Shown here in pieces: positions 36,255-64,000 of a stretch of 64,000 bases of DNA. The stretch is from Candidatus Shapirobacteria bacterium (GTDB lineage: Bacteria > Patescibacteriota > Microgenomatia > UBA12405). Position 1 is the first letter of the stretch, and each line of letters starts with the position of its first letter. Under the pieces are notes generated by a model. The model searched no databases, was not told the DNA's origin, and was given only the letters and a program-made list of their open reading frames with translations. Position numbers and translations under genes: made by a program. The stretch spans positions 651,203 to 715,202 of the forward strand of contig JAQWEN010000001.1 of assembly GCA_028704885.1 (NCBI GenBank), written 5' to 3'.

Positions 36255-37589
36255 TTATTTTTTTCTAAAAGAAAAAAGAGAGAAAGTAATAAATGATGAA
36301 GAAATTAAAAGTAAAATGATGGTTGGAGCTAAATTACCAGTAGTTGGAATACCTGAACTGGTACTTGGTTTACTAGTACGAACTGTTGGGACGGAAGTAA
36401 TAGTAGCGGTTTTAGCAGGAGTAATGATGGCTGTAGGGATTGCAGTAACAACAGGAGTGGTAGCGACTGTTGGAGCAATGGTGACTATGGGAGTAACAGT
36501 AGAAGATGCTGATGGTGAAGCTGAATAAGAAAGACTATTGTCGGCAGCCAGAATTGTAAATTTTTTAGAAATAATTTTATCAATACCATTATCTTTCACC
36601 GTAACAGTAATTGTATGTTCGCCTGGAGATAAATCTGCTGGAGGAGACCAATTCCAGGAACCGTCATCGTTAACAGTGACTTCACCAGTATAAACAGTTG
36701 GTGAATGAATTTCTATTTTAATAGTGGCTTTACTTGGGCCAGTACCAAAAAAGTCTGGTTTTTGGGTAGAAATTGATTCACTATCTTTTGGATTCAAAAT
36801 ATCTAATTCTTTAGAATTAGGAACTGGGGTAACTGAGGATAATGAACCAGTATTAGTTGCAGCATCAAAAGTAACTGGCAATGACGAAAATTGGTTTTGA
36901 CCTAAAATTATATCCGGAGTAGGATCATTTTGAGAAGTATTGGCATTAATTTGAGTGGTTTGTTTTTCTTGATCAATGACAATAATTTCCTCTGAAGTAT
37001 TATCAGTCGGAGTGAACCTGTTTGTTTTTGATTCATTGAAACTATTAGCTAAAGAAATATTCCAATTACCGGAAGTGGTTACTAAAGCGGATAAAGGTGA
37101 AGCATTAGGGATATTAATAAACACCATAACTTTACTGGCAGCTTTTAATTCTGGAGTAAAAACTCGACCCCAAGCTAAATTAGAAGAAGGTATCGAACCA
37201 TTTGGATTTGAAGCTGTTTCAAATTGATAAGTGGAACTTTTATATGTTTTTCCATCATTAATAAATGAATAATCATATTTGATTGAATTATCTAAGTTAT
37301 TAACATCAAAATAATGAATTTTACTTTTTTGGTCATTACTTAAAACAGCAGAATTACTGATAGTTTGATTATTTATTAATAAAGATGATAAACAAAATGA
37401 CTCGGTAACAAAGGAAATTGAGGCTGAATTGTTAGTAATATTAGTAACCTGAGGATTTATTGGTTGACAATCACCACTAGCCTTGGAAATAAAATTCGTA
37501 TTTTTATTAGTAAAAACAGCACCAGCAAAAATAGCACCAATTAATATAAAAAGCCCTAGAATAGTTGGTATTTTTTTTTCTTTAAGCAT
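36255..37589 (-). CDS. secreted surface protein with Ig-like domains, Thr/Pro/Val-rich stalk and C-terminal sorting-signal-like tail (IPTTG + TM + RKK)
   Basis: N-terminal signal/anchor. FN3/Ig-like blocks (KATIKIEIHSPTVYTGEVTVNDDGSWNWSPPADLSPGEHTITVTV). The C-terminus is PSTSSGIPTTGNLAPTIILLLISSSFITFSLFSFRKK. Confidence 0.55.
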   Translation of the reverse strand: MLKEKKIPTILGLFILIGAIFAGAVFTNKNTNFISKASGDCQPINPQVTNITNNSASISFVTESFCLSSLLINNQTISNSAVLSNDQKSKIHYFDVNNLDNSIKYDYSFINDGKTYKSSTYQFETASNPNGSIPSSNLAWGRVFTPELKAASKVMVFINIPNASPLSALVTTSGNWNISLANSFNESKTNRFTPTDNTSEEIIVIDQEKQTTQINANTSQNDPTPDIILGQNQFSSLPVTFDAATNTGSLSSVTPVPNSKELDILNPKDSESISTQKPDFFGTGPSKATIKIEIHSPTVYTGEVTVNDDGSWNWSPPADLSPGEHTITVTVKDNGIDKIISKKFTILAADNSLSYSASPSASSTVTPIVTIAPTVATTPVVTAIPTAIITPAKTATITSVPTVRTSKPSTSSGIPTTGNLAPTIILLLISSSFITFSLFSFRKK

Positions 37590-39142: not shown

Positions 39143-40756
39143 CTATTTGCGGAAAATAAAATCCTTAAATTTAAAATAGTATTTTTGGTAATCTTTAACT
39201 TCTTCCAACTTTAAGAAGTTAACTGAAAATATGTAGGTAATTAAGCCAATAAATGAAGAAATCAGAGTTAAAGTTAGAACTGGAATAACATGGGTAGTAT
39301 CTAAAATAAAAAGATCTAGAAATTTAATAGATAACCAACTGCTAATCCCCATTAAAACTGCTGATATTGATATTTTGTAAAATTTAGTGAACATAGTAAA
39401 CCAATTAAAACCATCCACAATCTTAATAAACATAGTTAATAAACCAAAAAGCTGAATTAAGTTACCAACAGATGCACTAATAGCCAAACCAACAACACCG
39501 AGACTAGTAAAGTTAACAAAATAATAACTGGTAACAATATTTACAGCCAAGGAGATCATGGAGATAAAAAATGGAACTTTAGTATTATGAAGAGCATAAA
39601 ATGCTCTAATTAAAATTTGAATTACGGCTTGACAAATTATGCCGGGAACTAAAAAGGCTAAAATTTTGGAAGTTAAAATAGTGGCTGTCCAGGGAAACTC
39701 ACGAGATCCATAGAGAAGTCTAATAATAGAGACTCTTTCGACTAAAATTAAAATACTAATAGGAACAGCAATAAATAAACTTTGAATTATAATTCGATGG
39801 ACGGTAGTTCTAAAAGTGTTTAATTCATTTCGGGCGATGTTTTTTGAAAGAATTGGTAATGAAGCTTGACCAACAGTAGTACCAAAGATACGACTAGGCA
39901 AATACATAAATTGGAGAGCTAAATTTAGAAGAGAGATAGATCCAGAAGCTAAGGTACTGGCAAAAAAGAGAGTAACAGTATTTTCAATTTCACCCAAACC
40001 TAGGGATAAAATTCTGGGGATCATGAGACGAAAAATTTCTTTAACTCCACTTAATTTTGTCCTGATTATAGGGTAATAAACAAAACCCTGACGGCGGAGG
40101 ACGGGGACTTGAATGGCAAAATGAAAAAAGGCACCAACAACAGCGCCGATGGCAACTCCATAAATACCAAAAATTGGAGCTAGGGTAAAAATACTGATAA
40201 TAATGAAGAGATTGTAAATAATAGGGGTGAGGGCAGGAACAATAAAAACTTGATTAACTTGAAGAATGGCAGTGGCAAAATTACTAAGAAGAAAAAATAT
40301 TTGAGCAATAAGTAAAATTCGACTAAGACTGGCCATTAAAGATAGTTGATCCGGAGAAAAACCAGCAGCGATAAGGCTAGAGATTGGTTTAATAAAAATA
40401 AAAGCAATTATGGAAATAATTGTGAAGGCAATTAAAAGAAGATTAATAACAGTGGAAGCAATTTCGTCGGCAACTTTCTTATTTTTATGTAAATAATTCG
40501 AAAAAACTGGGATAAAAGAGGCTGACAGAACACCGGTAACTAATAATTTAAAAATTAGGTCGGGAAGGCGAAAAGCGGCATTATAAACATCGAGTTGGGC
40601 TAAACAGCAGGAAAAAAACTTAGCATATAAAAAACGATTTCTTAAAAGACCAAGGATTGAAGAAAGACCAAAAGCTATGGCTAAAACTAAAGAAGCTGAC
40701 AAAATGGTACTTTGTTTTTTTTGACTTATTAGCTGAATCCTCTCTTTAAAGGTCAT
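39143..40756 (-). CDS. murJ: lipid II flippase MurJ (MviN family)
   Basis: 537 aa, 14 TM helices. N-terminal LSASLVLAIAFGLSSILGLLRNRFLYAKF and RLPDLIF blocks typical of MurJ. Confidence 0.85.
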   Translation of the reverse strand: MTFKERIQLISQKKQSTILSASLVLAIAFGLSSILGLLRNRFLYAKFFSCCLAQLDVYNAAFRLPDLIFKLLVTGVLSASFIPVFSNYLHKNKKVADEIASTVINLLLIAFTIISIIAFIFIKPISSLIAAGFSPDQLSLMASLSRILLIAQIFFLLSNFATAILQVNQVFIVPALTPIIYNLFIIISIFTLAPIFGIYGVAIGAVVGAFFHFAIQVPVLRRQGFVYYPIIRTKLSGVKEIFRLMIPRILSLGLGEIENTVTLFFASTLASGSISLLNLALQFMYLPSRIFGTTVGQASLPILSKNIARNELNTFRTTVHRIIIQSLFIAVPISILILVERVSIIRLLYGSREFPWTATILTSKILAFLVPGIICQAVIQILIRAFYALHNTKVPFFISMISLAVNIVTSYYFVNFTSLGVVGLAISASVGNLIQLFGLLTMFIKIVDGFNWFTMFTKFYKISISAVLMGISSWLSIKFLDLFILDTTHVIPVLTLTLISSFIGLITYIFSVNFLKLEEVKDYQKYYFKFKDFIFRK

Positions 40757-44252: not shown

Positions 44253-45083
44253 TTAATTTTTTGCAATTTGGACGGTATTGAAAAGAAGAGAAGCAATAGT
44301 CATGGGACCGACACCGCCGGGAACTGGAGTGATAAAACTAGCAATTTTTGAAACTTGGTCAAAATCAAAATCACCGGAAACTTGGCCATTTGAATCGGTG
44401 CCAAAACCAACATCAATAACAACAGCCCCTTCTCTAATAAAATCTTTGGTTAAAAATTTTGGCTTACCGACTGCGGAAATTAAGATATCAGCCTTTTGAC
44501 AAATTTCTTTTAAATTTTGGGTATGAGAATGACAAATAGTTACGGTAGAATTTTTACCTAATAATAGGGCAAATAATGGAATAGAAACTTCAGAACTACG
44601 ACCAATTATTACCGCGTTTTTACCGCTGATATCAATTTTATATTCTTCTAGAAGTTTGATTATTCCACAAGCAGTGGCCGAGGCGATTCCAGTGGAGCCT
44701 TTTTGAAAAAGAAGACCAAGATTAAAAGGGTTAAGGCCATCGGCATCTTTTTTATGATCAATATTAGCTAAAACTTTTTCAGTGTCAATTTGGGAAGGAA
44801 GAGGAAGTTGAACCATAAAAGCAGTAATTGAATCATCTTTATTTAATTTATTTACCAAAGATAAAAGATCGGCGGTAGTTGAAGATTCGCTAAGTTGATG
44901 AACATTACCACTGATACCAATTGATTGAGCTTTTTGCTGTTTTAGAGCCACATATTTTTGACTGGCAGAATCGGTACCAACAATAATTATGTCTAGAGTT
45001 GGTTTTAATTTGAAATTTGAAATTTTTAATTTTAAATCGTCAAGAATTTTTTGAGAAAGAGTTTTGCCATCAAGAATGATCAT
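44253..45083 (-). CDS. folD: bifunctional methylenetetrahydrofolate dehydrogenase/cyclohydrolase
   Basis: MIILDGK...VQLPLP...GKNAVIIGRSSEVSIPL...PVPGGVGPMTIASLL. 276 aa. Confidence 0.92.
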   Translation of the reverse strand: MIILDGKTLSQKILDDLKLKISNFKLKPTLDIIIVGTDSASQKYVALKQQKAQSIGISGNVHQLSESSTTADLLSLVNKLNKDDSITAFMVQLPLPSQIDTEKVLANIDHKKDADGLNPFNLGLLFQKGSTGIASATACGIIKLLEEYKIDISGKNAVIIGRSSEVSIPLFALLLGKNSTVTICHSHTQNLKEICQKADILISAVGKPKFLTKDFIREGAVVIDVGFGTDSNGQVSGDFDFDQVSKIASFITPVPGGVGPMTIASLLFNTVQIAKN

Positions 45084-45835
45084 ATTGTTAGTATCTCATA
45101 ACCAGTTTTAGTAATTAAAACAGTGTGTTCGAATTGGGCTGATAACGATCCATCTAGAGTACGAATAGTCCAACCATCATGTCGATCGAGAGTAACTCTA
45201 TAATTTGTAGAAGCATTAATCATAGGTTCGATAGTAAAAATCATTCCCTCTTTTAAAATAACTTTTTCTTGGTTGGTGTCGAAATGAAAAATAAAAGGAT
45301 CTTCGTGAAAACTAAGGCCAACCCCATGACCACCAAGTTCACGAACTATACTGTAACCTTTTTTATTGGCGATTGGCTCGATTACTTTACCAACACAATT
45401 ATTTAATAATTTGCCTGGTTTAAGGCATTTTATAGATTGATTTAGGGCATATTTTGTGGTCTCAATTAAATCTTGAGCTTTTTTGGTAATTTTACCGACT
45501 GGAAAAGAAGCAGAAACATCGCCATAATAACCATTTAAAATGGTGGTGACATCAAGATTGATAATATCCCCTTCTTTTAAAATTTCATTAGGAGAAGGAA
45601 TACCATGACAAACAACATTATTAATGGAAGTACAGATGCTTTTGGGAAAACCGCTGTAATTTAGAGGAGCTGGAATGGCATCATGGTCGATAATAAATTT
45701 ATGACCAAGTTCATTTAGCTTTTCAGTAGAAATTCCCGGTTTAACAAATCGGGAAAGATACTTTAAAGTGACCGCCGCTAATTTGGACGATTGACGAATA
45801 CCTTCAATTTGAGTTTGATTTTTAATGATAATCAC
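45080..45835 (-). CDS. map: type I methionine aminopeptidase
   Basis: VVCHGIP, metal ligands D...D...H...E...E (DVSASF, HGVGLSFHE, FTIEP and QFEHTVL). 251 aa. Overlaps folD by 4 nt. Confidence 0.92.
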   Translation of the reverse strand: MIIIKNQTQIEGIRQSSKLAAVTLKYLSRFVKPGISTEKLNELGHKFIIDHDAIPAPLNYSGFPKSICTSINNVVCHGIPSPNEILKEGDIINLDVTTILNGYYGDVSASFPVGKITKKAQDLIETTKYALNQSIKCLKPGKLLNNCVGKVIEPIANKKGYSIVRELGGHGVGLSFHEDPFIFHFDTNQEKVILKEGMIFTIEPMINASTNYRVTLDRHDGWTIRTLDGSLSAQFEHTVLITKTGYEILTI

Positions 45836-52043: not shown

Positions 52044-52809
52044 AAAGATTTATTTTTTGTTTTTTGGAATTGTTGTATTTGCGGCCAGTGAGGGCTTTGG
52101 AAAGAGCTTCACGGTATGCAATTTTGGGTAAAGTGTCTTTATTCTTTTCCAAATAATCTAATAGTTCATCTTGGTGAAAAGCGACTAAAGATCGAAGCAA
52201 CCAAGAAACGGCTTTAGTAATTAAAATTTCTTTTTCTGATTTAAGATTCTCAATATTTTGAAAAGCTAATTTGGATAAACGCGGATCGTCAGATTGACGA
52301 AGTGATTTAGTTAATAAAACTAGAGAAGCACGGCGTTTGTTAATATTGCGGTCTTGATTGAATTGTTTTAATATTTTTTGCCAGTTTGACCAATTATTAA
52401 GAATAATTTCACTGGTAAAATTTGATTGGCATAAAACATCATTTTCTGCCCAACCACAGGTGTAATTTAGCCATAAATCTAGATTTTTGGGATCAAAATC
52501 TTTTAGAGTTTCTGAAGATAATGACAAAATCATAGGACCAATAACAATTTCGGTATAACTGGTATTGTTTTGATAAAGAGAATTGAGTAATTCGATAATC
52601 TGATCTTTTTTTAGATTATTTTCGGTGATTATTTTTTTGGCCAAGTCAGATATCTGTTTAGTGGAAAAGCCGTGATAAGTTTTATTGGTTCCAATATATT
52701 TTTGACCAAAAGCAATATTCAATCTCTCTAAATCTCTCTTTAACAAGAGAGATTTTTCAAGTTCAGAAATATCTTTTAGAATTTGAAGATGGATTGGATT
52801 TTTAATCAT
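52042..52809 (-). CDS. DNA alkylation repair protein (AlkD/AlkC-like HEAT-repeat glycosylase family)
   Basis: C-terminal ILITKAVSWLLRSL...LPKIAYREALSKAL resembles AlkD (FYVRKAIGWVLRELS...LSGLSVREASKYL). The W-x4-W...D.L block LDLWLNYTCGWAENDVLCQ is present. The ATG at 52809 is preferred over the TTG at 52830. Confidence 0.6.
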   Translation of the reverse strand: MIKNPIHLQILKDISELEKSLLLKRDLERLNIAFGQKYIGTNKTYHGFSTKQISDLAKKIITENNLKKDQIIELLNSLYQNNTSYTEIVIGPMILSLSSETLKDFDPKNLDLWLNYTCGWAENDVLCQSNFTSEIILNNWSNWQKILKQFNQDRNINKRRASLVLLTKSLRQSDDPRLSKLAFQNIENLKSEKEILITKAVSWLLRSLVAFHQDELLDYLEKNKDTLPKIAYREALSKALTGRKYNNSKKQKINL

Positions 52810-53407
52810 TTTTGAGAGTACTGATAACAACTAAACGTTTTAAAGTGGTTCCTGGAGGCCAACAAGTCATTAAAGTGAGTTGATTTTGGCCGATTTTACT
52901 TGACATATAATTTAATTCATTGCCATTAATAATTTTTGTTTCATTAACAGTGTAAATATATTTTTGAGATTGATAATAAACAATAATTTCATCCCCTGTT
53001 TCTAATTTATTCAAAAGATAAAAGACGGCATTAAATTGATTGGCTTCATACCAATTACCAGCAGAATGGGCAAAAATAAAAGTGTTGCCGGATTTATCAG
53101 GGGTAGAAGTATCTTTGGCATGAGCAACCCCCTGAGTTAGAGCTCGTTGATAAATTTTAGAATTAAAAGGATCAACATTTTTAATAACTTTAGCATTGGC
53201 GTTAATTTTGGGAATAATAATGGAAAAGTCAAGATTAATTGGGACAATTTCAGTAGGTTTATCGGTTTTTTTATCTAGTTGATAAATTATTTCCGATTTT
53301 AATACTGGAGCAAAAGTAGAGACGGGAATTGTTAAAGAAATAAAAATAAAAAGAATTCCAACTAGAATAAATTTATTTCTTTTTATTCCTAATTTTTTTG
53401 ACAACAT
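52802..53407 (-). CDS. sortase (class A/E-like transpeptidase)
   Basis: N-terminal membrane anchor. Catalytic TLxTC as QLTLMTCWPPG, a His region (TFIFAHSAG) and an Arg (TTLKRLVVI). Immediately downstream of the giant surface protein. Confidence 0.72.
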   Translation of the reverse strand: MLSKKLGIKRNKFILVGILFIFISLTIPVSTFAPVLKSEIIYQLDKKTDKPTEIVPINLDFSIIIPKINANAKVIKNVDPFNSKIYQRALTQGVAHAKDTSTPDKSGNTFIFAHSAGNWYEANQFNAVFYLLNKLETGDEIIVYYQSQKYIYTVNETKIINGNELNYMSSKIGQNQLTLMTCWPPGTTLKRLVVISTLKND

Positions 53408-56400
53408 AACCAATTATAAACAAAACCAGAAGAGCTACTAGAGCCGAAGAGAATTTGTGACGGCTAATGAATGACTGGAATTGAGTGGAAAAACTTTTTG
53501 GATTTGGAGTTTCGGTACCTAAAATTGAGCCTTCTTGGTTTTCATCAGAAATGGCTTCTTGATCGATTTCTGACCCGTCTTTAGGAATATTATCGTCGCC
53601 AATAACCGGAATGGCACCGAGTACACTACCGGTAGTGGTTGTGGTTGTAGAAGTATAGACGGTAATAAAATCACCAGCTAGACCGCTGCCGTTGCCTGCT
53701 TCATCAAAGGCACGTATAACGTAATAATAGGTTTTATTACAGTCGGGAACATTAACGTCGGTAAAACTTCCTTTTTGATCGGGACTTATACCAACTTGAC
53801 CAATCTGGGAACCAGAGTCAGCAATAAATTTAGTGACATCAGCGCGATAAATTCTAATTATATTAGTTTTACCGTCATTGCTAGCCTTGAAACTGATTTT
53901 GTAATTACACCCCTCTCTCTCTTTGGAATAATCATTTGGAGTACCAGGACCAGAACTATCATAATCAACAGCCACAGAATCACTGCGATATTCTTCTCCA
54001 CCAGAGGAAGCGATGGCATAGAAATAATAGGTTTTTTCACTTTCAGTGAGCGGATTATTTTCTAAATTACATTCACCGGAATTACCACCAGCTTTGACAT
54101 CAACCGTGCCAATTTGAATTTCACTGGAATCGGGATTGACCTTAAAACATTTGACAGTTAAAGGTCGATTAAGAATATCAAGAGCGGTAAAGCTAAGAGT
54201 AAATTTGTCTTTATTAGTTGGAGAAATTGGATTTTCAACGCTAATAAAAATATTACTACTTTGAACAGCATTGGCAGCCTTGACGGAGAAAAGTGAAACT
54301 AAACTAATGAGGGTAATAATAATTAGACTTTTCATAATATTTTTTTCTTTTTTTAATCCGTAAATTATAAAACCAATGCCCAACAAGGATAAAATACCGA
54401 AGATAATCATCCAAACGGTCTGAGCACCAGTACCAGGCATTTCGGTGGTGGCACCAAGAACTTGGCCTTCTTCTTTGACAATATTAACGTCTTGGCTGGC
54501 AAAAACTGGATCAATTTTAATTTGAGTGCCAACGAAAGTAGAAGCTAAATAACCTGGAGCAATAGCGCTGGCTAAAAGTTTGTCAGAACTTTCAAGTGTA
54601 CATTCTTGGCTGTCTTGACAACCATAAGCCCAAGCGGCGTCTTTGTAGGTGCCAGGGTCGACAGAATTATCGATGGTGGCAACATATTTAAGAGTAACAA
54701 CATCGTCTTTATTAAGATCACCGATTTGCCATTTACCTGGAGAATGATAGACAGGTTCAGGAATCGATCTTTCAGTTCCATTAATTAAAACTTTCCAACT
54801 ACCGGCTTTATAAGTAAAGCCAAATGGTGGCAAATCTATAACTGAAACTCCTTTTATATTATTTTCTTGGACATTAAGAGTAATTGTATATTCAACTTCG
54901 GAACCATTGGTTTGAGCAGTTGGCCAACGATTGTTGGTTTTAGAAATTGTGAGTTTAGCAGGAACTTTCCAATTGATAAAGTTTACTGATTTGGATTCAC
55001 CGCTAGTGACTGTTATTGTAATATCATTATCTGATTTAAGTTTATAAGCAGAGGGAATATTTATTTCTGACAAAGTGTAAGTTCCTGGATTTAGTTTATA
55101 AACAGCTGGAGATAATTCGGAAAAATTACTATTTTCTTGACCCGTAACAGAAGTAGTAAATACATTATTATCTTCAATCTGTTGTCCAAGATTATCTAGA
55201 ACATCTTTATTAACAGTGACGGTAGCTTTTTGATAATTACCGATGTAACAAGTTTTATTTGCTCCAGCACTAATTATTAATCTATTGCTTGGGGATGATT
55301 GAGCTAATACTTCGCCCACTTTAAATATATCTTTTAAATTAAAAGCAGCTTCTCCTGGTGGAGTTGGAGTGGGAGTAGGATTGCTGGAACGATTAGTACA
55401 TTTAATGTCGGTTACACCACTAACACCACACCAATTACCCCAATCCCAATCGATGCTTCCTCTGTTGTAAAACAAATGGCAATTATTAAATTGCGTACAA
55501 GGTCTGTCTTCTCCATATGAAACTAGACTGTCATATCCATTTACTTCGCAAGCCCAAAGAGCACAGGTGGCGGCATCTCCACAACCATTCCAACCTCCGC
55601 AATTTCCGTGATGTCCATAAGCCTCTCCTGTTTTAGTAATTAAAACACCAGGGCCATTATCTTCGCAATATATATTGGATTGATACCAACCTTCCTGCAT
55701 ATTTTCCCCTAGAACATACTCTCCGGGAATTAAGCTAAAGATTGTTTTTCCAGTTTCGTCAGTTTTTTGAGTGGAACCAGTAGTATTCTGATCCATAGTA
55801 ATATCCCAATTTGGCAAATAAGGTTCATTTTTATCATGTTTTCCATTACCGTTAAGATCGTTAAATTTATAGACAACTACTTCACCTTTTTGTTGATTGC
55901 CGAAATTATATTCGTGACCTTCCACATAATTTAAACTTGAAGGAAATTCATTAGAATTATCATCCGGTAAATTTATGACATGACAATTGTCATTTTGATT
56001 TAGTGGATACGTTTGAATCCAACCATTTTGTAAAACTTCACAGACTTTGTATTGTCCAGGCAAAAGATGTTCAAACCAATACCAACCAAAGTGAAATTGG
56101 GTACTATCGGTGGTTGTTGATTTTAAAGGAATTGACTCAAACCCACCATCATCGTTAGATTCATAAAGATTAATGGTCCAATCGGAAAGCAAAGACTCTC
56201 CAATTCCGACAGTTGGCCCACCACTAGCATTCATATCACTCCATTTGTAACCATGAATAGTACCATTGGGAGTATTATAAAAAGTACAAATCGTATTTGT
56301 GTCTTTATAAACATCTACACTATCAACACTATCTGTGTTGTCAAAAGTACCATTTTCAAGACCGCAATTAGCACTGAATAAATCGTAGCCATTTTGTTTT

Positions 56401-59400
56401 GTTTCAATTACAGTGTATTCACCTGTTTTTAAATTTGAGAATATTTTTGTTCCATTGGCATCGGTTACGTCGGCAGAGGCATCGGTTGTATCAGCTCCTG
56501 TGCCATCGACATCAAACTGCCAATTTCCGGCAGATGTTTGATCATTGGTGGTATAAAGATCACCATCTATATCAATAATTTTATTAACAGTAATCGAGCC
56601 GGTGTCGCGGGTGTTGGTGATAGTACAAGTACCGCCTTCAGTATGAACATTTAAAGTAATAACTTTGGTTGATGGGTCCATTGAACAAACACCAGAAGCT
56701 CCGGTTAAAGTATAATTTGAGGCACCAGATTCAGTGACGGTGTAAGAACCAGTATCGTAAGTTTTAGTATCACCATCTTTGGCGGTTTCTTGACCGGAAA
56801 TAGTAAAAGTCCAATCAGTGTCTTGGGCAGAACCACCAAGAACAACTTTATCGAATTTAATATCGCCTGTTTTACGCGTATTAGTGTAGATACAAATAAT
56901 ATGTTGATCTTTGGCAACTGAAACACTATCATTGGCGCCAATGGAAATTACTGGTTCGGTATCGTTTGTGCCATTGTTATTGACATCGTTAAAACAAGAA
57001 AGTGGAGAAGCGGTGTAATTATCTAATCCATTAGTTTCGGATAAATAATAAGTACCAGTAATAACATTATTTTGGCCAGTTGATAAAGGTATAGCTCCGT
57101 TAATTCCGGTTTGTTGAGAATCAATATCACTTCCACCGGAAACTGTACCAATCTTAAGAGTTGTTTGACCACCATTACCTGACCAAGATTTTATTAATTC
57201 GATGGTTCCAGTGTCACGAGCATTAACAAAAGTACAAACTACATTTGCGTTTTCACCGATACCAACTACATGTCCACTAGCAGAATCAAATTCGTATAAA
57301 TCTCCAGTACATGAAATTGATACTTGGTGAAAATTTGTTTTAGGAGTTTCAGAAATAAAATGATTTCCTGTTACTGCTGTTATGGCAGAATCACCAGTAT
57401 AACCAGAATGAGCATATTCAGGAACTCCTAACCAACTAGTTTGCCATTGCCAATCAGTGGCTCCGGTTTCACCAGCATCGGTATAATCACCATCACCGTT
57501 TAAATCGACATTTTTTAAAACTCTTAAAGTGCCTGTCTTTCGGGTATTTGTAATAGTACAAGATTTGACATCTCCGGGAGCCAGAGTAATAGCGCCATTT
57601 GAGGCACAATCACCAGTAATGGCCTTATTATAGTCAGGGAAATTGGCACCAGTATTGTCATATTCAGAAACGACATAGTTTCCGGCATTAAATCCATTTT
57701 GAACGCCGGTTAAAACAGTAGTTGCTCCAACTTTTAGAGTAAATGAAGAAGCGGGCTTTGAATCCCCAACTACAATTTTGGTGACAGTAAGTTTTGGCTG
57801 AATATCATTATTGGTAATTGAACAAACAGTAGTTTGGCCAAGACCAAGTGTTATTTCACTGTTTCCATTTACAATAATTCCATTTGTACAAGTCCAAGCA
57901 CTGGCACTATAACCTGAAGGGCCGGATTCAGATAAAGTATAAGTACCAACTTTAAAGGATGATCCGCTAATAACATCGGTACTTCCAGATGCACCATGAC
58001 CTGATAAAGTACCAGCTGGTCCACCATTGGCAGTCAAAGTCCATGCTGATTCAAGAGCAGTACTTCCATTATCTTTTATTAAAATTTTATTTAAAGTTAA
58101 AGATGGAGCAATATCATCATTAGTGATAGTACAGGTTTTGCTTTGACCTAAACCAACAACAACATTACCTTGAGTATTGCAATCTCCTCCCCAATTACCA
58201 GCAGAATAACCCAAAAGATTGGTTTCGCCGACGAGGTGAGAGCCAGGATTGACAGCATAAGTAACTTCATCAAAAACAGGATTACTATCCACAGTAAGTT
58301 TAAAATCGTTTGGCTCAGCAATACCACCGTTATTATTAATTACAGTTTTATTAACAATGAGATAGGATTGTTGATCATCATTAGTAATGGTACATTTTTT
58401 AGTTTCACCTAATTTAACAGTAACTTTACCATCTAAACCACAATCCATTCCCCAAGTTCCGGCAGTGTAACCGGAAAGATTAATCTCACCGACAGTGTGT
58501 TCACCTGGGTTAACAGCATAAGCAATTTCGTCTAAGACAGCATTACCATCAACAGTTAGTTTAAAATCATCAGGTTTAGCTGATCCACCATTATCATTAA
58601 CAACTGTTTTGTCGACAATAATATAAGACTGCTGATCATCATTAGTAATAGTACAAGTAATATCTTGCCCTTCGCTTAGAGTTACAGTGTCACCTAAATT
58701 AGCAGGACAACCGGTACCACTAATTGAGACAAAGGAATAACCAACTAAACCAGTTTCATTAATAGCATATGGAATATTAGATTTAATAGAATATTTTTGG
58801 CTAGAATTAACTAAGGTTCCATCAATACTTAGTCCAAAGTCGTTAATACCAGCAGTACCACCATTATTGTTAATAACATTTTTGATTAAAGTAATTGAAG
58901 AAGCAATGTCGTCGTTGGTGATTGTACATGATTTATCGTCACCTAAGGCCAGAGTGATGGAACCATCTGGGGCGCAGGCACCACTGATAGTCGAAGAATA
59001 ACCTGGTTGATTAGTTTCGCTAATTTTATAATTACCAACATTAAATCCATTTTCTTGGCCGCTAGTAACTTGAAGGGAACCGACATATAACGGAAAATCA
59101 GAAACAACTTTGGTGCCGCCATTATCATTAACTACAATTTTAGTGACAGTTAGTTTTGGTTGAATTGGGGTATTGGTAATGGTACAAGTTATACTTTGTC
59201 CTAAAGATAGGGTTAAAATATTTCCAGTTGGAGTGGCGCCGCCAGTACAATCCCAAACTGAAGAATTAGTGCCGGTTGGACCACTTTCAGATAAAGTGTA
59301 AGTACCAGCTAAAACATTGCCAGTAACACTGCCCTGCCCTACTAAAGACGAACCGGTGCCAATAGCTGATAGTGTCCAACTACTGGGAGTATATCCACTA

Positions 59401-62400
59401 TTGTAAGTATCAGTCCAGCTTTTGATTAAAGTTAAGGTTGGAGCGATATCATCGTTAGTAATAGTACAAGTCTTATTTTCACCAGCAGCTAAAGAAACAG
59501 TACCGTCGGCAGCACAGTCTCCTCCCCAATTACCAGCAGAATAACCGGTTAAGGTTGTTTCACTGGCGGTGTGAGAAGTTAAAGAAACTGTTTGAGCAAC
59601 TTCCCAAGGAACATTATTACCATCAATTCTGGCTTGAAAATCATTGATAACTGCAGTTCCACCATTATCATTTACAACAGTTTTTACTAAAGTAAGAGTG
59701 GCGTCTTTAGTATTAGTAAAAGTACAAGTAACAGTTTCGCCTGGGTCTACACGGAAGATTGCTGACCTTGTGGGTAAATCAAATAGACTTGGATTTACCG
59801 ATGAGCCATCGTCGCAAGATATATCAGTCAAATTCCAACCTATTTTTAATGATTCTTGTGATGCGTAATCATAATTGGTCAAAGCATTATTTATCTCTAA
59901 ATTTCCATTGTTGGTACTAATAGTACCTGCAACGTCTCCGGTAAAATCAAAACTGTCGGTTCCGCCGACCATCACTTTTTTAACAATAATTTTTCCAAGT
60001 TTAGTATTGGTGATATTGCAATATTTAGTTTCACCGGCGCCAATAACAACATTCTGACAAGTATCGCCAGTTTTAGACCAACCAGTAGGAACGGTTTCGG
60101 TAACAGAATAGGTACCTGGAGTGACTTCATAATCTTTATCAACTGTATTTGATATTGTCTGTTGGGTTGTATCGATGGTTCCGGTTCCGCTTGCTGTAAT
60201 AAAAAATGATGCAGAATCTGCAGGAATAGTGGTTTTCTGAACAATTAAATGACCTTTTTGTTTAGTATTGGTAAAAGTACAAGTAATATTTTCTCCCGGT
60301 TGCAGAGAAATTGCGGTGATTGGGCTGCCGTCACTACAAACGGCGCTGGTTTGAGTCCAACCGGCAACTGCACCTTCTGAGACAGAGAAGGTTCCCGGCA
60401 TTAAGTTACTAAAGACTTTAGTATTTGATAATGTTGCATCAGAATTGTCGTCGAGTGAAAAATTAGACAAACCACTACCGGTGGTGGTGAAACTGAAATC
60501 TTGAGGATCATTGGGAACAGCGTCTTTAATAATAGTTATTGAGCCTTTATTAGTGGTATTGTAAAAGTTACAAGTAATAATACTGTCGGCAGTTACGGCA
60601 ATATCTTTAACACCCGGATTGGTTGGATCTGTTACACCGCTGGTACAAGTGGCATGATCAAAGGAGTAACCAGAGGGAATAGAAACTTCAGAAATAGAAT
60701 GATTGCCAACACTTAATGTTCCACTGGCTACCTGACCATTGGTGTCAGTAGTTAATGTGGTGGTGCCATCAATTTTAAATGACCAAGTTTGACCGTCACT
60801 TTTTTGAACACCATCAACCCATTTATTGACACTTATTTTTCCTCCACAGGTTTGTTTAGCAAAGGTGGCTAATTGGGCGGCGAGACCGGAAAAATCAGTA
60901 GTAATAACATCGGAAGTTAAAACACTACCAGTATTTACATTATGTCCAGAAATGGCTTTTAAATTTTCAACACTTAATTCATTTCCAATACCTAAAGTAA
61001 GAACTCTTCTTCCAGCTGTTTTAGCAATATTAGCTTTACCTACGGCAGCATTTAGAGCGGTTGATTCATTGGCACCACAGCCTGATCCATTAATAATGGT
61101 ATTTGGATTACCATCGGAAGCAAAAAGAATTAAATCTGGTTTATCAGCTCTACCTCCAAAGGTACCATTGGCTTTAAAAATACTATCGTCCCAATTGGTG
61201 CAGTCTCCGCCTCCAGCAGAATTAATTTTAGTTTTAACGGCGGTAAAATCAGAAGTAAAAGGTTGAAGTATGTCTGCGGTCGTGTCAAATTGAGTAACTG
61301 AAAATTGAGTTGGAGTACCATTGAGAGCATCGACGAAACCGGTAAAAGCAGATTTCATTTGATTTAGCTCAGTATTATTAATACTTCCAGAAACATCGAT
61401 AACAATAGCAATATCAAGACCACAGACTTGGGAAAGAGTTGGATTAGTGACAGGAGCTGGAGTAGTTGATTTGACTTCAAAAGTGGCAATACCTGTTTCG
61501 GTTTTACTGGTTGGGGCATTACAATTTGTAAGGCTATCATATTTTGTAATTTCAGCTTTCCAATTAGTGCCAATCGGAGCGGCGCCGTCGAGAGTATAAG
61601 AACCCTTCAGGGAAGTAACCCCGGTGGTACATGGAGCGGATGAATGTCTGGTTGTCCCATTTTGTTCAATAATATCAACACGATAAAATTTGCTCGCTGT
61701 TAGACTAGTAGAATTTATATAGACAGTATCTCCTTGCAGATAAACTGATTCTGATAGAGTTATTCCTAAATCGGCATAAGTAGCGATAAAGATAGTGAAA
61801 TGGTCAATAGAAACGGCTTTGACGGTGTCGCCGGATTGTTCGATTTTGGAATCTTCAATCTTATTAATATCAAAAAAAGATAAATCAGATTTGGCTTCGT
61901 CAATAGATTTTTCGATGTAGGAAATTTCGGCAGTAGAATCGACTGGTTTTGGAAGAGTAACATCGTATTCAAAATCACCGTCTTTCATACCAGTGGTGAT
62001 GTCAAAAGCATATTCACCGACACTACCCATAGTGTCTGGAAGAACTAAATCGGCGGTTTTAATTTTTTGGATTTTTAGCGAGGTGCGCAAAGATTCATCT
62101 TTGGGAAGACATTTAAAAGTAATTGAAACTTTATTTTTTTGAGGATAAATATATTTAACTCCAAGCTGAACCTTGCCTTTGGTTTCAGAAATTCCGGTGG
62201 TGTCATTAATAATCCATTCTTCATTGGTAGTATCTTTTATTTGTTCATCAGTGAGACAAACTTTTTCAAAAACAGTACCTAAAACTGGGGCTTCGGTTGG
62301 AGTGGATTCTGGAGTTGGAGTGTTCTCTGGAACGGTTATTATTTCTGGAGCTGGAGTGATACTAACATCTAAAACTGGAGCAGTCGGTTCTATTACTATG

Positions 62401-62711
62401 ATTGGACTTGGTTCTGGAGTTATTTCGGGAGTGACTTCAAGAGTAACTTCTGGTGTTATTTCAGGGATAATTTCTGGTGTGACTTCAGGAGTTATTTCTG
62501 GACTTGGAATTATTTCTGGGGTTGGGGTTATTTCAACAATAGCTGGGGCTTCGGGGGCTGGAGTTGGTTCAACAATGACTTCTTCGACAGCAGGCGCTTC
62601 TTGGGCATAAACAGGTTGGACGGCCAGCAAAAAAGGCACGAAGGAATTAAAGAGGAGGGAAACATTTGCAAGAATAGCAACAAACTTTCTTGCGACACCT
62701 AATTTGATCAT
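53373..62711 (-). CDS. giant cell-surface protein: signal peptide, Pro/Glu/Thr-rich spacer, vWA domain, about 15 tandem beta-sandwich repeats, Cys-rich module, DUF11-like domain with sorting-signal-like segment, FN3-like C-terminal module with TM anchor
   Basis: About 3112 aa from the ATG at 62711 (MIKLGVARKF...). The ORF-track TTG at 62738 gives 3121 aa. Spacer repeats PEITPEVTPEIIPEITPEV. vWA MIDAS motif IAIVIDVSGSIN...ASDG. Repeats end in C-T-[IF]-T-N. Internal segment TEMPGTGAQTVWMIIFGILSLLGIGFIIYGLKKEKN. Terminal TM SALVALLVLFIIGYVVKKIRNKKK. Confidence 0.8.
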   Translation of the reverse strand: MIKLGVARKFVAILANVSLLFNSFVPFLLAVQPVYAQEAPAVEEVIVEPTPAPEAPAIVEITPTPEIIPSPEITPEVTPEIIPEITPEVTLEVTPEITPEPSPIIVIEPTAPVLDVSITPAPEIITVPENTPTPESTPTEAPVLGTVFEKVCLTDEQIKDTTNEEWIINDTTGISETKGKVQLGVKYIYPQKNKVSITFKCLPKDESLRTSLKIQKIKTADLVLPDTMGSVGEYAFDITTGMKDGDFEYDVTLPKPVDSTAEISYIEKSIDEAKSDLSFFDINKIEDSKIEQSGDTVKAVSIDHFTIFIATYADLGITLSESVYLQGDTVYINSTSLTASKFYRVDIIEQNGTTRHSSAPCTTGVTSLKGSYTLDGAAPIGTNWKAEITKYDSLTNCNAPTSKTETGIATFEVKSTTPAPVTNPTLSQVCGLDIAIVIDVSGSINNTELNQMKSAFTGFVDALNGTPTQFSVTQFDTTADILQPFTSDFTAVKTKINSAGGGDCTNWDDSIFKANGTFGGRADKPDLILFASDGNPNTIINGSGCGANESTALNAAVGKANIAKTAGRRVLTLGIGNELSVENLKAISGHNVNTGSVLTSDVITTDFSGLAAQLATFAKQTCGGKISVNKWVDGVQKSDGQTWSFKIDGTTTLTTDTNGQVASGTLSVGNHSISEVSIPSGYSFDHATCTSGVTDPTNPGVKDIAVTADSIITCNFYNTTNKGSITIIKDAVPNDPQDFSFTTTGSGLSNFSLDDNSDATLSNTKVFSNLMPGTFSVSEGAVAGWTQTSAVCSDGSPITAISLQPGENITCTFTNTKQKGHLIVQKTTIPADSASFFITASGTGTIDTTQQTISNTVDKDYEVTPGTYSVTETVPTGWSKTGDTCQNVVIGAGETKYCNITNTKLGKIIVKKVMVGGTDSFDFTGDVAGTISTNNGNLEINNALTNYDYASQESLKIGWNLTDISCDDGSSVNPSLFDLPTRSAIFRVDPGETVTCTFTNTKDATLTLVKTVVNDNGGTAVINDFQARIDGNNVPWEVAQTVSLTSHTASETTLTGYSAGNWGGDCAADGTVSLAAGENKTCTITNDDIAPTLTLIKSWTDTYNSGYTPSSWTLSAIGTGSSLVGQGSVTGNVLAGTYTLSESGPTGTNSSVWDCTGGATPTGNILTLSLGQSITCTITNTPIQPKLTVTKIVVNDNGGTKVVSDFPLYVGSLQVTSGQENGFNVGNYKISETNQPGYSSTISGACAPDGSITLALGDDKSCTITNDDIASSITLIKNVINNNGGTAGINDFGLSIDGTLVNSSQKYSIKSNIPYAINETGLVGYSFVSISGTGCPANLGDTVTLSEGQDITCTITNDDQQSYIIVDKTVVNDNGGSAKPDDFKLTVDGNAVLDEIAYAVNPGEHTVGEINLSGYTAGTWGMDCGLDGKVTVKLGETKKCTITNDDQQSYLIVNKTVINNNGGIAEPNDFKLTVDSNPVFDEVTYAVNPGSHLVGETNLLGYSAGNWGGDCNTQGNVVVGLGQSKTCTITNDDIAPSLTLNKILIKDNGSTALESAWTLTANGGPAGTLSGHGASGSTDVISGSSFKVGTYTLSESGPSGYSASAWTCTNGIIVNGNSEITLGLGQTTVCSITNNDIQPKLTVTKIVVGDSKPASSFTLKVGATTVLTGVQNGFNAGNYVVSEYDNTGANFPDYNKAITGDCASNGAITLAPGDVKSCTITNTRKTGTLRVLKNVDLNGDGDYTDAGETGATDWQWQTSWLGVPEYAHSGYTGDSAITAVTGNHFISETPKTNFHQVSISCTGDLYEFDSASGHVVGIGENANVVCTFVNARDTGTIELIKSWSGNGGQTTLKIGTVSGGSDIDSQQTGINGAIPLSTGQNNVITGTYYLSETNGLDNYTASPLSCFNDVNNNGTNDTEPVISIGANDSVSVAKDQHIICIYTNTRKTGDIKFDKVVLGGSAQDTDWTFTISGQETAKDGDTKTYDTGSYTVTESGASNYTLTGASGVCSMDPSTKVITLNVHTEGGTCTITNTRDTGSITVNKIIDIDGDLYTTNDQTSAGNWQFDVDGTGADTTDASADVTDANGTKIFSNLKTGEYTVIETKQNGYDLFSANCGLENGTFDNTDSVDSVDVYKDTNTICTFYNTPNGTIHGYKWSDMNASGGPTVGIGESLLSDWTINLYESNDDGGFESIPLKSTTTDSTQFHFGWYWFEHLLPGQYKVCEVLQNGWIQTYPLNQNDNCHVINLPDDNSNEFPSSLNYVEGHEYNFGNQQKGEVVVYKFNDLNGNGKHDKNEPYLPNWDITMDQNTTGSTQKTDETGKTIFSLIPGEYVLGENMQEGWYQSNIYCEDNGPGVLITKTGEAYGHHGNCGGWNGCGDAATCALWACEVNGYDSLVSYGEDRPCTQFNNCHLFYNRGSIDWDWGNWCGVSGVTDIKCTNRSSNPTPTPTPPGEAAFNLKDIFKVGEVLAQSSPSNRLIISAGANKTCYIGNYQKATVTVNKDVLDNLGQQIEDNNVFTTSVTGQENSNFSELSPAVYKLNPGTYTLSEINIPSAYKLKSDNDITITVTSGESKSVNFINWKVPAKLTISKTNNRWPTAQTNGSEVEYTITLNVQENNIKGVSVIDLPPFGFTYKAGSWKVLINGTERSIPEPVYHSPGKWQIGDLNKDDVVTLKYVATIDNSVDPGTYKDAAWAYGCQDSQECTLESSDKLLASAIAPGYLASTFVGTQIKIDPVFASQDVNIVKEEGQVLGATTEMPGTGAQTVWMIIFGILSLLGIGFIIYGLKKEKNIMKSLIIITLISLVSLFSVKAANAVQSSNIFISVENPISPTNKDKFTLSFTALDILNRPLTVKCFKVNPDSSEIQIGTVDVKAGGNSGECNLENNPLTESEKTYYFYAIASSGGEEYRSDSVAVDYDSSGPGTPNDYSKEREGCNYKISFKASNDGKTNIIRIYRADVTKFIADSGSQIGQVGISPDQKGSFTDVNVPDCNKTYYYVIRAFDEAGNGSGLAGDFITVYTSTTTTTTGSVLGAIPVIGDDNIPKDGSEIDQEAISDENQEGSILGTETPNPKSFSTQFQSFISRHKFSSALVALLVLFIIGYVVKKIRNKKK
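56600..60650 (-). repeat. about 15 tandem ~265-bp (about 88-aa) domain repeats inside the giant surface-protein gene
   Basis: Periodic recurrence every 260-275 bp of the antisense motif ...atcatcattagtaatNgtaca... (encoding C-T-I-T-N-D-D). Adjacent units are near-identical, e.g. QSYIIVDKTVVNDNGGSAKPDDFKLTVDGNAV vs QSYLIVNKTVINNNGGIAEPNDFKLTVDSNPV. Confidence 0.7.
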
Positions 62712-62823
62712 ATATAAGATTAATCTTGGGCAGACCAAATTTATAATAGTATCTACAAAGAGTATATTACTTTTTTATAGGAATTCAAGTCGAGCTGAAG
62801 ATAAACTTAATATGTTTTTATTA

Positions 62824-64000
62824 TTAAGCTTTTTTAGATTTTATTTTTATTAATATAGGAATTAATCCAGATAAAATATTACCAATCCAAAAATAATTAC
62901 ATAACCAGCTAGGACCAAAACAGCAGTGAGATTTTAATAAACGACTATCAATAAAATATGTTGTTAAAGAAATTATTATGGGAATTAAAATATCTTTAGT
63001 TGGAAGTCTGAAATAAATTAAATTAATTAAAAAAGCGACAATAAATAAAAGAGGTAACCAATGTTTAGTACAAGAGGAATCTTGAGAACCTAATATTTTT
63101 GGTTCTTCAATTGAATTGTTTTCAGTGGTATCTCCTAAAACATTTGGTTGAAAACCGGTGGGAATGATATTGGTTGGAGTTACAGTGGCACCGGGATTAA
63201 TACAATATTCGGGAGTGCGACCGCCGGGCATACAACCATTTAAACTACGAACATAAAAACAATATTGAGCCCCTGGAGTTAAACTGCCAACGGTGTAAAA
63301 ATCTTCATTACCAACATTAGGATTACCGTAAATATAGTTGTTGGGATTTGGTCCATAAGCAATCAAATAACCAGTATGCGGGGAAGTTGAATGAGTCCAA
63401 TGGAGGGTAATTGACCCAGAAGAATTCGCGACAGCATAAAATCTAGTTGGAGCAGTGGGGACCGAATTAGTACACTCAGCAGTGCCTTGATTTGAAGATG
63501 GATTATCAGAAATACTTGATAAAACATCCCCTGTTTCTTCATCGCATTCGAAATTAAAATTAATGCCAAAATTAGTATTGAGATTTTGATAAACATTAGT
63601 GGCCTCTGAATCGAAAGTTACTGACCATAAATAACTATTTTTTTTATCTTTATTGACATGACCAAGCGAGACTACTGGTTTATTTGGATCTAATAAATCG
63701 CTTAAAGAATAATTTACTAAACTATAATCGTTTTCATTATTAGTGGCTAAAATATTGATAAGAATTTTTTGAGATAAAACATCTGGAATCTGACTACTGG
63801 AAACAGCTTTAAATTTTAATTGACAGGGAGCATTACGATTATTGTCAATATAAAAATTCTGAGATTTAGTAAAGCCTGGATAAATATTGGTTTCGTCAAA
63901 AAGGGGTAATTCTGAACTTTTAGTACATTCTGAACCAGAATTACAAGTAATGGTTATGTCGTTTCCGGCAAAAATTGGTTTAGATAAAAAAAGAGAGAGA
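62824..64000 (-). CDS. FN3-domain-containing membrane-anchored protein (5'-partial; N-terminus lies beyond the window end)
   Basis: The frame is open from 64000 down to the stop at 62824. The ORF track starts it at an internal TTG (63366). The upstream in-frame translation gives a textbook FN3 block ...VPTAPTRFYAVANSSGSITLHWTHSTSPHTGYLIAYGPNP...YTVGSLTPGAQYCFYVRSLNG. The C-terminus has 3 hydrophobic segments. Confidence 0.55.
   Translation of the reverse strand, partial: LSLFLSKPIFAGNDITITCNSGSECTKSSELPLFDETNIYPGFTKSQNFYIDNNRNAPCQLKFKAVSSSQIPDVLSQKILINILATNNENDYSLVNYSLSDLLDPNKPVVSLGHVNKDKKNSYLWSVTFDSEATNVYQNLNTNFGINFNFECDEETGDVLSSISDNPSSNQGTAECTNSVPTAPTRFYAVANSSGSITLHWTHSTSPHTGYLIAYGPNPNNYIYGNPNVGNEDFYTVGSLTPGAQYCFYVRSLNGCMPGGRTPEYCINPGATVTPTNIIPTGFQPNVLGDTTENNSIEEPKILGSQDSSCTKHWLPLLFIVAFLINLIYFRLPTKDILIPIIISLTTYFIDSRLLKSHCCFGPSWLCNYFWIGNILSGLIPILIKIKSKKA

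Follow-up and report, generated by a model that had tools for sequence, protein, structure and literature searches.

The 64,000-nt stretch of Candidatus Shapirobacteria DNA analyzed here (contig JAQWEN010000001.1; hereafter, the window) encodes on its reverse strand a giant surface protein in which a sortase sorting signal is followed, with no stop codon in between, by a segment resembling a signal peptide and by a further membrane-anchored module. A conserved three-gene cassette of Microgenomates is composed of a giant LPxTG adhesin, a tandem beta-sandwich membrane protein of ~320 amino acids (aa) and a sortase, and our analysis points, with a probability that we place at about 0.75, to a genuine in-frame fusion of its first two cistrons that has been inherited. 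The comparative analysis presented here establishes the architecture of the fused gene and its conservation, its homology to the two-gene form and the sortase gene linked to it. The exact 3112-aa protein has been deposited from two NCBI assemblies (MDD2482786.1 and MDD4410805.1) as a 'VWA domain-containing protein' of Candidatus Shapirobacteria, which belong to the Microgenomates within the Patescibacteria or candidate phyla radiation (CPR).

A sorting signal joined to a signal peptide

The protein reads across the junction as ...EGQVLGATTE-MPGTG-AQ-TVWMIIFGILSLLGIGFIIYGL-KKEKNI-MKSLIIITLISLVSLFSVKAANA-VQSSNIFISVENP..., and no stop interrupts the frame anywhere between these segments (Table 1; residues are numbered from the first TTG of the giant open reading frame, or ORF, and NCBI protein numbers are lower by 9). 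A hydropathy scan of all 3121 aa reveals four hydrophobic segments and no more, namely the signal peptide at the N-terminus, a first transmembrane (TM) segment (TM1), the internal signal peptide and a last TM segment (TM3). The first part of the junction has the layout of a sorting signal, with MPGTG followed by 22 hydrophobic residues and KKEK, and the NCBIfam model TIGR01167 (LPXTG_anchor) scores 18.7 bits on it against a cutoff of 15.9, the match spanning residues 322-353 of a 355-aa query that ends at the loop. What sets it apart from an ordinary LPXTG signal is its position, for 350 residues follow MPGTG. A six-frame scan of the window for a composite pattern (motif, then 15 or more hydrophobic residues, then a basic pair) returned just two sites, this junction and the IPTTG of ORF 36255..37589.

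The second part of the junction has the features of a Sec-type signal peptide (KKEKNIMK, then SLIIITLISLVSLF, then ANA/V) and aligns with residues 1-23 of the stand-alone homologues P0011, P0012 and P0014, which are 59-64% identical to it over the module. Alanine occupies position -1 in 98 of 103 fused and 102 of 108 split members of the family, and valine or alanine position -3 in 82 of 103 and 95 of 108, respectively; a -3/-1 site kept equally in both forms suggests that the internal signal peptide is cleaved. The preliminary description of this DNA had proposed precisely this succession, a sorting signal and then a signal peptide with an AXA site inside one giant ORF, and the family models, the hydropathy profile and the alignment with N-terminal signal peptides agree with it, the cleavage itself being predicted. 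The internal ATG that it noted is also real, its codon lying at 54335..54333 and not at 54334.

The sorting signal is well preserved among the fused relatives. The motif [LMF]PxTG is retained in 112 of 114 fused members, most often as LPATG (63), LPSTG (20) or LPGTG (14), with LPKTG (6) and MPxTG (4) at the same site in others. Over the 112 fused relatives, the median distance from the end of the motif to the first Lys or Arg is 24 aa, and the loop, with a median length of 8 aa, has a net charge of +2 or higher in every one of them.

Fused and split forms of the cassette

An initial search for homologues, whose query covered the junction, retrieved six proteins of 33-50% identity, all with the same in-frame layout and with unrelated junction sequences. 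A profile of the module, run against a word-indexed database, retrieved 93 proteins, mostly stand-alone proteins of ~312-335 aa that start with a signal peptide (among those with a named source are proteins of Candidatus Daviesbacteria, Gottesmanbacteria and 'Patescibacteria group'), and an exhaustive search of 1.84 billion representatives with the module profile yielded 961 cluster representatives, 682 of them at E<1e-10 and 509 at E<1e-30. Of the 232 members that were retrieved, 117 stand alone, 112 follow an [LMF]PxTG motif in a fused protein, two are fused and lack the Leu-Pro of the motif, and one is a radical-SAM chimera. In this last protein (P0004, 432 aa, from a 2.8-kb Joint Genome Institute contig), a radical-SAM N-terminal part is joined to the module from the middle of domain 1; a chimeric contig or a product of recombination is the probable origin.

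The gene order is adhesin, module and sortase in every locus examined. The first two are fused in the window and in loci L001, L002, L003, L006 and L007, and the sortase gene overlaps the 3' end of the fused gene in each of them, by 35 nt in the window. They are split in L004, L005, L008 (Candidatus Daviesbacteria, 744-kb contig) and L009, where the sortase gene follows the module gene. Split adhesins end in ...VLGAxxxLPxTG-TM-basic tail-stop, with the stop codon 4 or 8 nt past the module ATG and in another frame, and the modules of these two-gene loci are about 40-64% identical to that of the window. The closest split loci, L004 and L005 (62-64% identity), share the synteny of the window (module, sortase, DNA_alkylation) and show a 4-nt overlap in which the TGA of the adhesin lies over the ATG of the module. 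In L005 the adhesin ends ...EMPSTG...GLKKGKKI-stop, the TGA falling within ATGA, and the stretch ahead of the ATG measures 23 nt as against 24 nt in the window, a 1-nt difference in the A-rich lysine tail. Synteny makes plain that a switch took place within the clade of the window itself, where the window, L006 and L007 have the fused form and L004 and L005 the split one. Hence, the suspicion that two surface-protein genes are joined in frame here is supported by the comparison of orthologous loci that had been suggested with it: both one-gene and two-gene forms are found, and the fused relatives keep the features of the signal peptide.

The fused frame is also preserved in independent sequences. 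The junction DNA of the window reads GGA TTA AAA AAA GAA AAA AAT ATT ATG AAA (A7-G-A7). That of L007, an independent contig from a metagenome-assembled genome, reads CTA AAA AAA GAA AAA AAT ATT ATG AAA, with the same junction in frame. In L006, an independent metagenome contig with the synteny of the window (fused gene, sortase, DNA_alkylation, Nramp), GLKKEKPIMKSLII is encoded in frame as GGC CTC AAA AAG GAG AAA CCT ATT ATG, with no long homopolymer. All three share the junction peptide KKEK[N/P]IMK. Nonsynonymous divergence (dN) in the sorting-signal segment is 0.22-0.24, with a synonymous divergence (dS) of 1.67 against L007 and uncomputable, through saturation, against L006; in the internal signal peptide, dN is 0.32-0.41 and dS 0.67-1.55. 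In-frame junctions, saturated synonymous sites and low dN together indicate that the fused frame has been maintained for a long time.

Two further observations concern these loci. In L001 (4673..10502), L002 (2945..11240) and L003 (3695..10217), the adhesin part is divided between two large ORFs, the second of which bears the sorting signal and the module; these breaks could be real splits, frameshifts or problems in the assembly of repeats. A genome scan with a narrower alignment of the module returned a single locus, L007 (CAZSCX010000004.1), which carries a Microgenomates-type cassette and is deposited as 'uncultured Gammaproteobacteria bacterium', a title that is probably a binning or labelling error.

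The C-terminal module

The module of the window comprises 320 aa with its signal peptide and 297 aa after it, ending in a TM helix and a basic tail. It matches no Pfam or NCBIfam family, Pfam fn3 included, and Pfam returned weak Big_3_2 matches in nine of 76 module homologues. An AlphaFold2 model built on a 76-sequence alignment has a mean predicted local distance difference test (pLDDT) score of 82.8 and places beta-sandwiches at residues 28-125 and 134-221, followed by a disordered Thr-rich and acidic stalk of ~65 residues and a C-terminal TM helix. Each domain contains an invariant pair of cysteines, and a lysine in the second (K2939; module Lys138, in YSK) is conserved in 94% of 228 members. 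As modelled, the fold belongs with immunoglobulin (Ig)/FN3-like beta-sandwiches. The module had earlier been described as an FN3-like unit of 330 aa; the likeness stands as two predicted beta-sandwich domains, and the size is to be corrected as above. Foldseek comparison with the PDB returned generic tandem Ig/FN3 matches alone (e.g. cytokine receptors, Tie2 FN3, transglutaminase C-terminal barrels), at query-normalised TM-scores of only about 0.25, so that the function of the module cannot be read from its fold.

The 219 module tails contain no canonical LPXTG by the C-terminal TM segment, the sole matches being of the GAIPVTG type, about 50 residues upstream. The module is therefore taken to be stably anchored in the membrane, and the idea that it is a second sortase substrate is ruled out. 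That the module is a membrane-anchored partner of the adhesin is suggested by its obligatory position in the cassette, its fusion partner, its stalk and its conserved lysine, and it might, as a guess, serve the adhesin as partner or base.

A G-x-VLG motif (54456..54467) is found about 6 residues ahead of the LPxTG of the adhesin throughout the family, and a VLG-type motif recurs, sometimes twice, in the module stalk (53466..53660 in the window; 202 of 219 family tails). This shared motif may be a wall-spanning or sortase-docking element.

Proposed processing of the fused protein

We infer the topology of the fused protein from the positive-inside rule and from the established sortase and signal peptidase I pathways. 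The basic tail of the sorting signal, which would hold the C-terminus of that signal on the cytoplasmic side, would run on as the positively charged n-region of the next signal peptide, and this shared basic loop would thus have TM1 cross the membrane from outside to inside and the internal signal peptide cross back, re-exporting the module, whose C-terminal tail is also basic. The fusion would be tolerated because it leaves membrane topology unchanged.

Processing might then proceed as follows. After export via Sec and removal of the N-terminal leader by signal peptidase, TM1 would span the membrane, the loop would remain cytoplasmic and TM3 would anchor the module. The adjacent sortase would cut MPGT/G within the sorting-signal peptide ...GATTEMPGTGAQ and move the adhesin, with ...ATTEMPGT as its predicted C-terminus, to the cell envelope; both the cut and the envelope linkage are predicted from context, namely a sortase gene encoding TLMTC that overlaps the 3' end. 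Signal peptidase I would then cut after ANA (A2824), giving the module an N-terminus at V2825 (starting VQSSNIFISVENPISPTNK) and leaving it held by its C-terminal TM helix alone. A two-helix hairpin of ~54 residues (G2771-A2824) would be left as waste. Release of a separately anchored C-terminal module by sortase had already been envisaged in the preliminary description; the anchor, TM3, and the stand-alone counterparts are there, and the release step stands as a prediction. Both gene arrangements would end in identical products, which would account for the switching of lineages from one state to the other. Such switches could arise, presumably without penalty, through small (1-2-nt) indels where A-rich lysine codons encode the tail, and the retained internal ATG may permit separate translation of the module.

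The sortase encoded next to the fused gene carries TLMTC, in agreement with the TLXTC active-site motif, and is recognized by Pfam Sortase (PF04203; 3.4e-23, 82.2 bits against a cutoff of 26.6) and by NCBIfam sortase_fam (TIGR01076; 58.1 bits against 39.35).

Weighing the fusion and its alternatives

Several points weigh against the interpretation of the junction as an inherited and processed fusion of two cistrons. Both cleavages, the topology and the role of the module are read from sequence. The best class model for the sortase is that of class C (NF033745), at 63.6 bits against a cutoff of 160, and the protein also falls under the cutoffs of classes D, E, F and GN, so that, below every curated class cutoff, its substrate motif and acceptor are left unassigned. 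Two fused proteins (P0211 and P0222) read ...VLGAATGTNTTW..., having lost the Leu-Pro of the sortase motif while keeping the TM hairpin and the module, and hence cleavage may fail to occur in at least some of the fused proteins. The ratio of fused to split forms varies with the search that supplied the sample, the best 150 representatives comprising 108 fused proteins (median 1618 aa, maximum 3090) and 42 split ones. Fitch parsimony on a neighbour-joining tree of 228 modules requires at least 25 fused/split changes, as opposed to 62-87 with shuffled tip states, which indicates that the state is heritable yet has been switched repeatedly, but this count rests on a quick distance tree, and tree error would inflate it. 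Lastly, length heterogeneity in the A7GA7 tract of the window is conceivable, judging from the assembled sequence.

Among the alternatives, dual expression is a real if tentative possibility, and one that is compatible with the fusion of cistrons proposed here. The internal ATG (54335) would still act as a start, the module would mostly be made separately, and the read-through fusion would be a minor or neutral by-product. A methionine lies at the boundary of loop and hydrophobic region in 69 of 112 fused proteins, against about 8% expected by chance, and L006 keeps AAGGAG 9 nt upstream of its internal ATG; translation of the module may therefore still be initiated on its own. Moreover, the Shine-Dalgarno (SD) sequence of the module in the split loci L008 and L009, AAGGAG(G), is embedded in Arg, Lys and Glu codons of the adhesin tail (around 8975..9003 in both). 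On the other hand, 43 of the 112 fused proteins have no methionine at that site, its retention in the rest could reflect recent fusions, and, with no stop codon, ribosomes translating the adhesin would read through regardless. The window has no SD ahead of the internal ATG, but this genome seldom uses one (six of 45 ORFs), so that an SD test of internal initiation is uninformative here, and the ATG lies in an A/T-rich stretch.

It is unlikely that the module itself supplies the sortase nucleophile. The adhesin threonine would be joined to K2939, giving a branched, membrane-anchored conjugate resembling a pilus base; a single polypeptide would thus be cut and re-joined, with the fusion securing a 1:1 supply of both partners. 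If this were true, the A-rich lysine tract would be a mutational switch between a 1:1 fused supply and a separately tunable two-gene supply. The top score of the sortase with the model for class C, the pilin polymerases, would fit, as would the conservation of the lysine, the encoding of the module always between adhesin and sortase, and the long stalk and TM anchor of the module. Against this, the class C score is far under its cutoff, no pilin motif was matched and neither Pfam nor NCBIfam has a family for the module, the lysine falls short of invariance, and the fold matches are those of generic tandem Ig/FN3 domains.

A real but unprocessed fusion, in which the LPxTG would be vestigial and TM1 and the 'signal peptide' would form a permanent hairpin within one three-TM protein, is quite improbable. 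P0211 and P0222 speak for it, and both cleavages are so far predictions. Nonetheless, retention of the sortase motif in all other fused members, conservation of the -1 Ala and the -3 Val or Ala at the frequency seen in stand-alone proteins, which are expected to be cleaved, and the overlap of a sortase gene with intact TLXTC with the end of the gene in every locus examined all speak for processing.

The missed stop or assembly artefact raised in the preliminary description is rejected on account of the in-frame junctions of L006 and L007 and their saturated dS: it is very improbable that a one-base error in A7-G-A7 falsely merges two genes overlapping by ATGA, even though with one A fewer (+1 frame) the upstream gene would end ...GLKKKKIL-TGA, its stop inside ATGA, in exactly the split layout of L004 and L005 and 1 nt off the spacing of L005, for the identical 3112-aa protein comes from two assemblies and 112 diverged fused relatives have unrelated junction sequences.

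Other features of the window

The N-terminal ~2750 residues of the fused protein are a fibrillar adhesin, with a signal peptide, a Pro/Thr/Glu-rich region, a von Willebrand factor A (VWA) domain and many SpaA, SpaA_2, SpaA_4 and SdrD_B repeats. Pfam E-values over the repeat array are 1.6e-93 for SpaA_2 (nine stretches), 3.6e-33 for SpaA_4, 6.5e-20 for SpaA and 6.4e-9 for SdrD_B. Between this array and the last domains sits a conserved Cys-rich segment, GEAYGHHGNCGGWNGCGDAATCALWACEVNGY...PCTQFNNCHLF (55404..55676, reverse strand; aa 2355-2445 of the giant protein), which has no Pfam match and is common to P0002, P0007, P0104 and L007.

ORF 36255..37589 (reverse strand) encodes a 444-aa 'Ig-like domain-containing protein' with a C-terminal IPTTG, TM segment and RKK (motif at about 36350), and it stands about 16 kb from the sole sortase gene identified in the window; by its predicted sorting signal, it is likely a second sortase substrate. 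Directly upstream of the giant gene, a 180-aa ORF (62824..63366, reverse strand) has no Pfam or NCBIfam match. Rfam and tRNA scans of the window found no RNA or tRNA. Many of the 45 ORF starts of the window have a TATAAT-like hexamer 6-12 nt upstream (e.g. 10405..11262, 39143..40756, 45080..45835), which, together with the rarity of SD sequences, suggests that leaderless or very short-leader mRNAs may be widespread in this Shapirobacteria genome.

Table 1. Features of the fused gene and of the adjacent sortase gene (window coordinates)
Feature	Position	Strand	Description
Sortase gene	52802..53407	-	201 aa from ATG 53407; NCBI MDD2482787.1; N-terminal TM segment
Giant ORF	53373..62738	-	3121 aa/codons from first TTG (mechanical ORF)
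Fused gene, NCBI call	53373..62711	-	ATG 62711, 3112 aa; giant VWA/SpaA-repeat adhesin plus C-terminal module
TM3 and predicted cytoplasmic tail	53376..53450	-	SSALVALLVLFIIGYVV plus KKIRNKKK, then stop; hydrophobic aa 3097-3113; own membrane anchor of the module
Stalk of module	53466..53660	-	Disordered, Thr-rich/acidic, with GAIPV and G-x-[VI]LG motifs; pLDDT <50 (module residues 226-289)
Module domain 2	53673..53936	-	Predicted FN3/Ig-like beta-sandwich, Cys pair C2944/C3000; AlphaFold2, Foldseek, conservation
Module domain 1	53961..54254	-	Predicted beta-sandwich, invariant Cys pair C2864/C2890; AlphaFold2 pLDDT >90 for most of domain
Internal signal peptide	54267..54335	-	MKSLIIITLISLVSLFSVKAANA/VQ; aa 2802-2824; putative signal peptidase I site after A2824 (ANA/VQ)
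Internal ATG	54335..54333	-	Start of internal signal-peptide segment
Predicted cytoplasmic basic loop	54336..54353	-	KKEKNI; DNA A7-G-A7; sorting-signal tail and n-region of internal signal peptide
TM1	54354..54419	-	TVWMIIFGILSLLGIGFIIYGL, hydrophobic part of sorting signal; aa 2774-2795; hydropathy; predicted outside to inside
Sortase recognition motif	54426..54440	-	MPGTG (LPXTG variant); aa 2767-2771; predicted cut T2770/G2771
Adhesin stalk	55677..60800	-	SpaA/SpaA_2/SpaA_4/SdrD_B prealbumin-like fold repeat array; Pfam
Adhesin VWA domain	60936..61415	-	aa 442-601; Pfam VWA/VWA_2, E about 1e-9
Adhesin N-terminal Sec signal peptide	62604..62711	-	MIKLGVARKFVAILANVSLLFNSFVPFLLAVQPVYA/QE; sequence and hydropathy; kept in P0104

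Significance

A main implication of this analysis is that natural proteins can carry a sorting signal followed directly, head to tail, by a signal peptide, presumably with topology undisturbed, and that giant adhesins of such build are present in uncultivated Microgenomates of the CPR, and in hundreds of them. As an attached life on host cells is presumed for CPR bacteria, surface machinery displaying their largest adhesins is of direct interest. The work also brings to light a large unannotated family (961 cluster representatives) as an obligatory partner of adhesin and sortase, and the fusion provides Rosetta-stone evidence that adhesin and module work together. On a more practical note, annotators should not 'repair' such ORFs as frameshifts, and searches for sortase substrates that are confined to C-termini will miss them.

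Comparison with known systems

In the literature on sortase in CPR/Patescibacteria and on 'internal LPXTG', we found no description of this architecture. With the canonical C-terminal sorting signal (TIGR01167 / PF00746) it shares an LPXTG-type motif, ~20-24 hydrophobic residues, a basic tail and an adjacent sortase, but here the signal is internal, in contrast with the IPTTG...RKK-stop that ends ORF 36255..37589 of the same window. The two-gene cassette of L004, L005, L008 and L009 has a homologous adhesin C-terminus, the module and the same gene order; there, a stop codon separates the two frames, whereas in the window they coincide. Gram-positive pilus and adhesin operons, with their SpaA-type pilins, VWA tip adhesins and class C sortase, likewise combine a VWA domain and SpaA-fold repeats with an LPXTG signal and a dedicated neighbouring sortase. 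They differ in that no separate major or basal pilin gene lies by the cassette, in that the sortase fails the class-specific cutoffs and in that the module has no LPXTG beside its TM segment. Outside the bacteria, flavivirus polyproteins use a TM anchor, an internal signal sequence and a signal-peptidase site to part two mature ectodomain proteins of one ORF, but they are viral and processed in the eukaryotic endoplasmic reticulum, whereas the present system belongs to a bacterium, and a sortase is proposed for its first cut.

The closest known analogue is the LPXTG-two-TM region of the streptococcal IgA1 protease/Zmp family (ZmpB/C/D). In these zinc metalloproteases, a non-C-terminal LPXTG is followed by two hydrophobic membrane-spanning segments (PMC3518915), the second of which is proposed, where that paper cites Bender & Weiser 2006, to function as a further signal peptide and to contain the second signal-peptidase site of the protein (PMC3518915). 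The fused protein of the window resembles them in its internal LPXTG-type motif, its two TM segments, its predicted second signal-peptidase site and the extracellular protein that comes after. Family and structure searches revealed no sequence relationship to Zmp proteins, Pfam detecting VWA, SpaA-type and SdrD_B domains and no peptidase domain, and the two designs are arranged differently. In Zmp, the LPXTG comes right behind a short leader, close to the N-terminus, and precedes a large functional protein, whereas ~2750 adhesin residues precede the motif here (residue 2767 of 3121) and what follows is an unrelated module of small size, made of tandem beta-sandwiches and anchored by a C-terminal TM segment of its own. 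Here, moreover, the origin by cistron fusion is directly visible, for fused and split forms coexist. The design of LPXTG, two TM segments and second signal-peptidase site thus appears to reach a lineage unrelated to the streptococcal proteases, and the cassette suggests a route by which such a design may originate, from two overlapping cistrons and a 1-2-nt indel.

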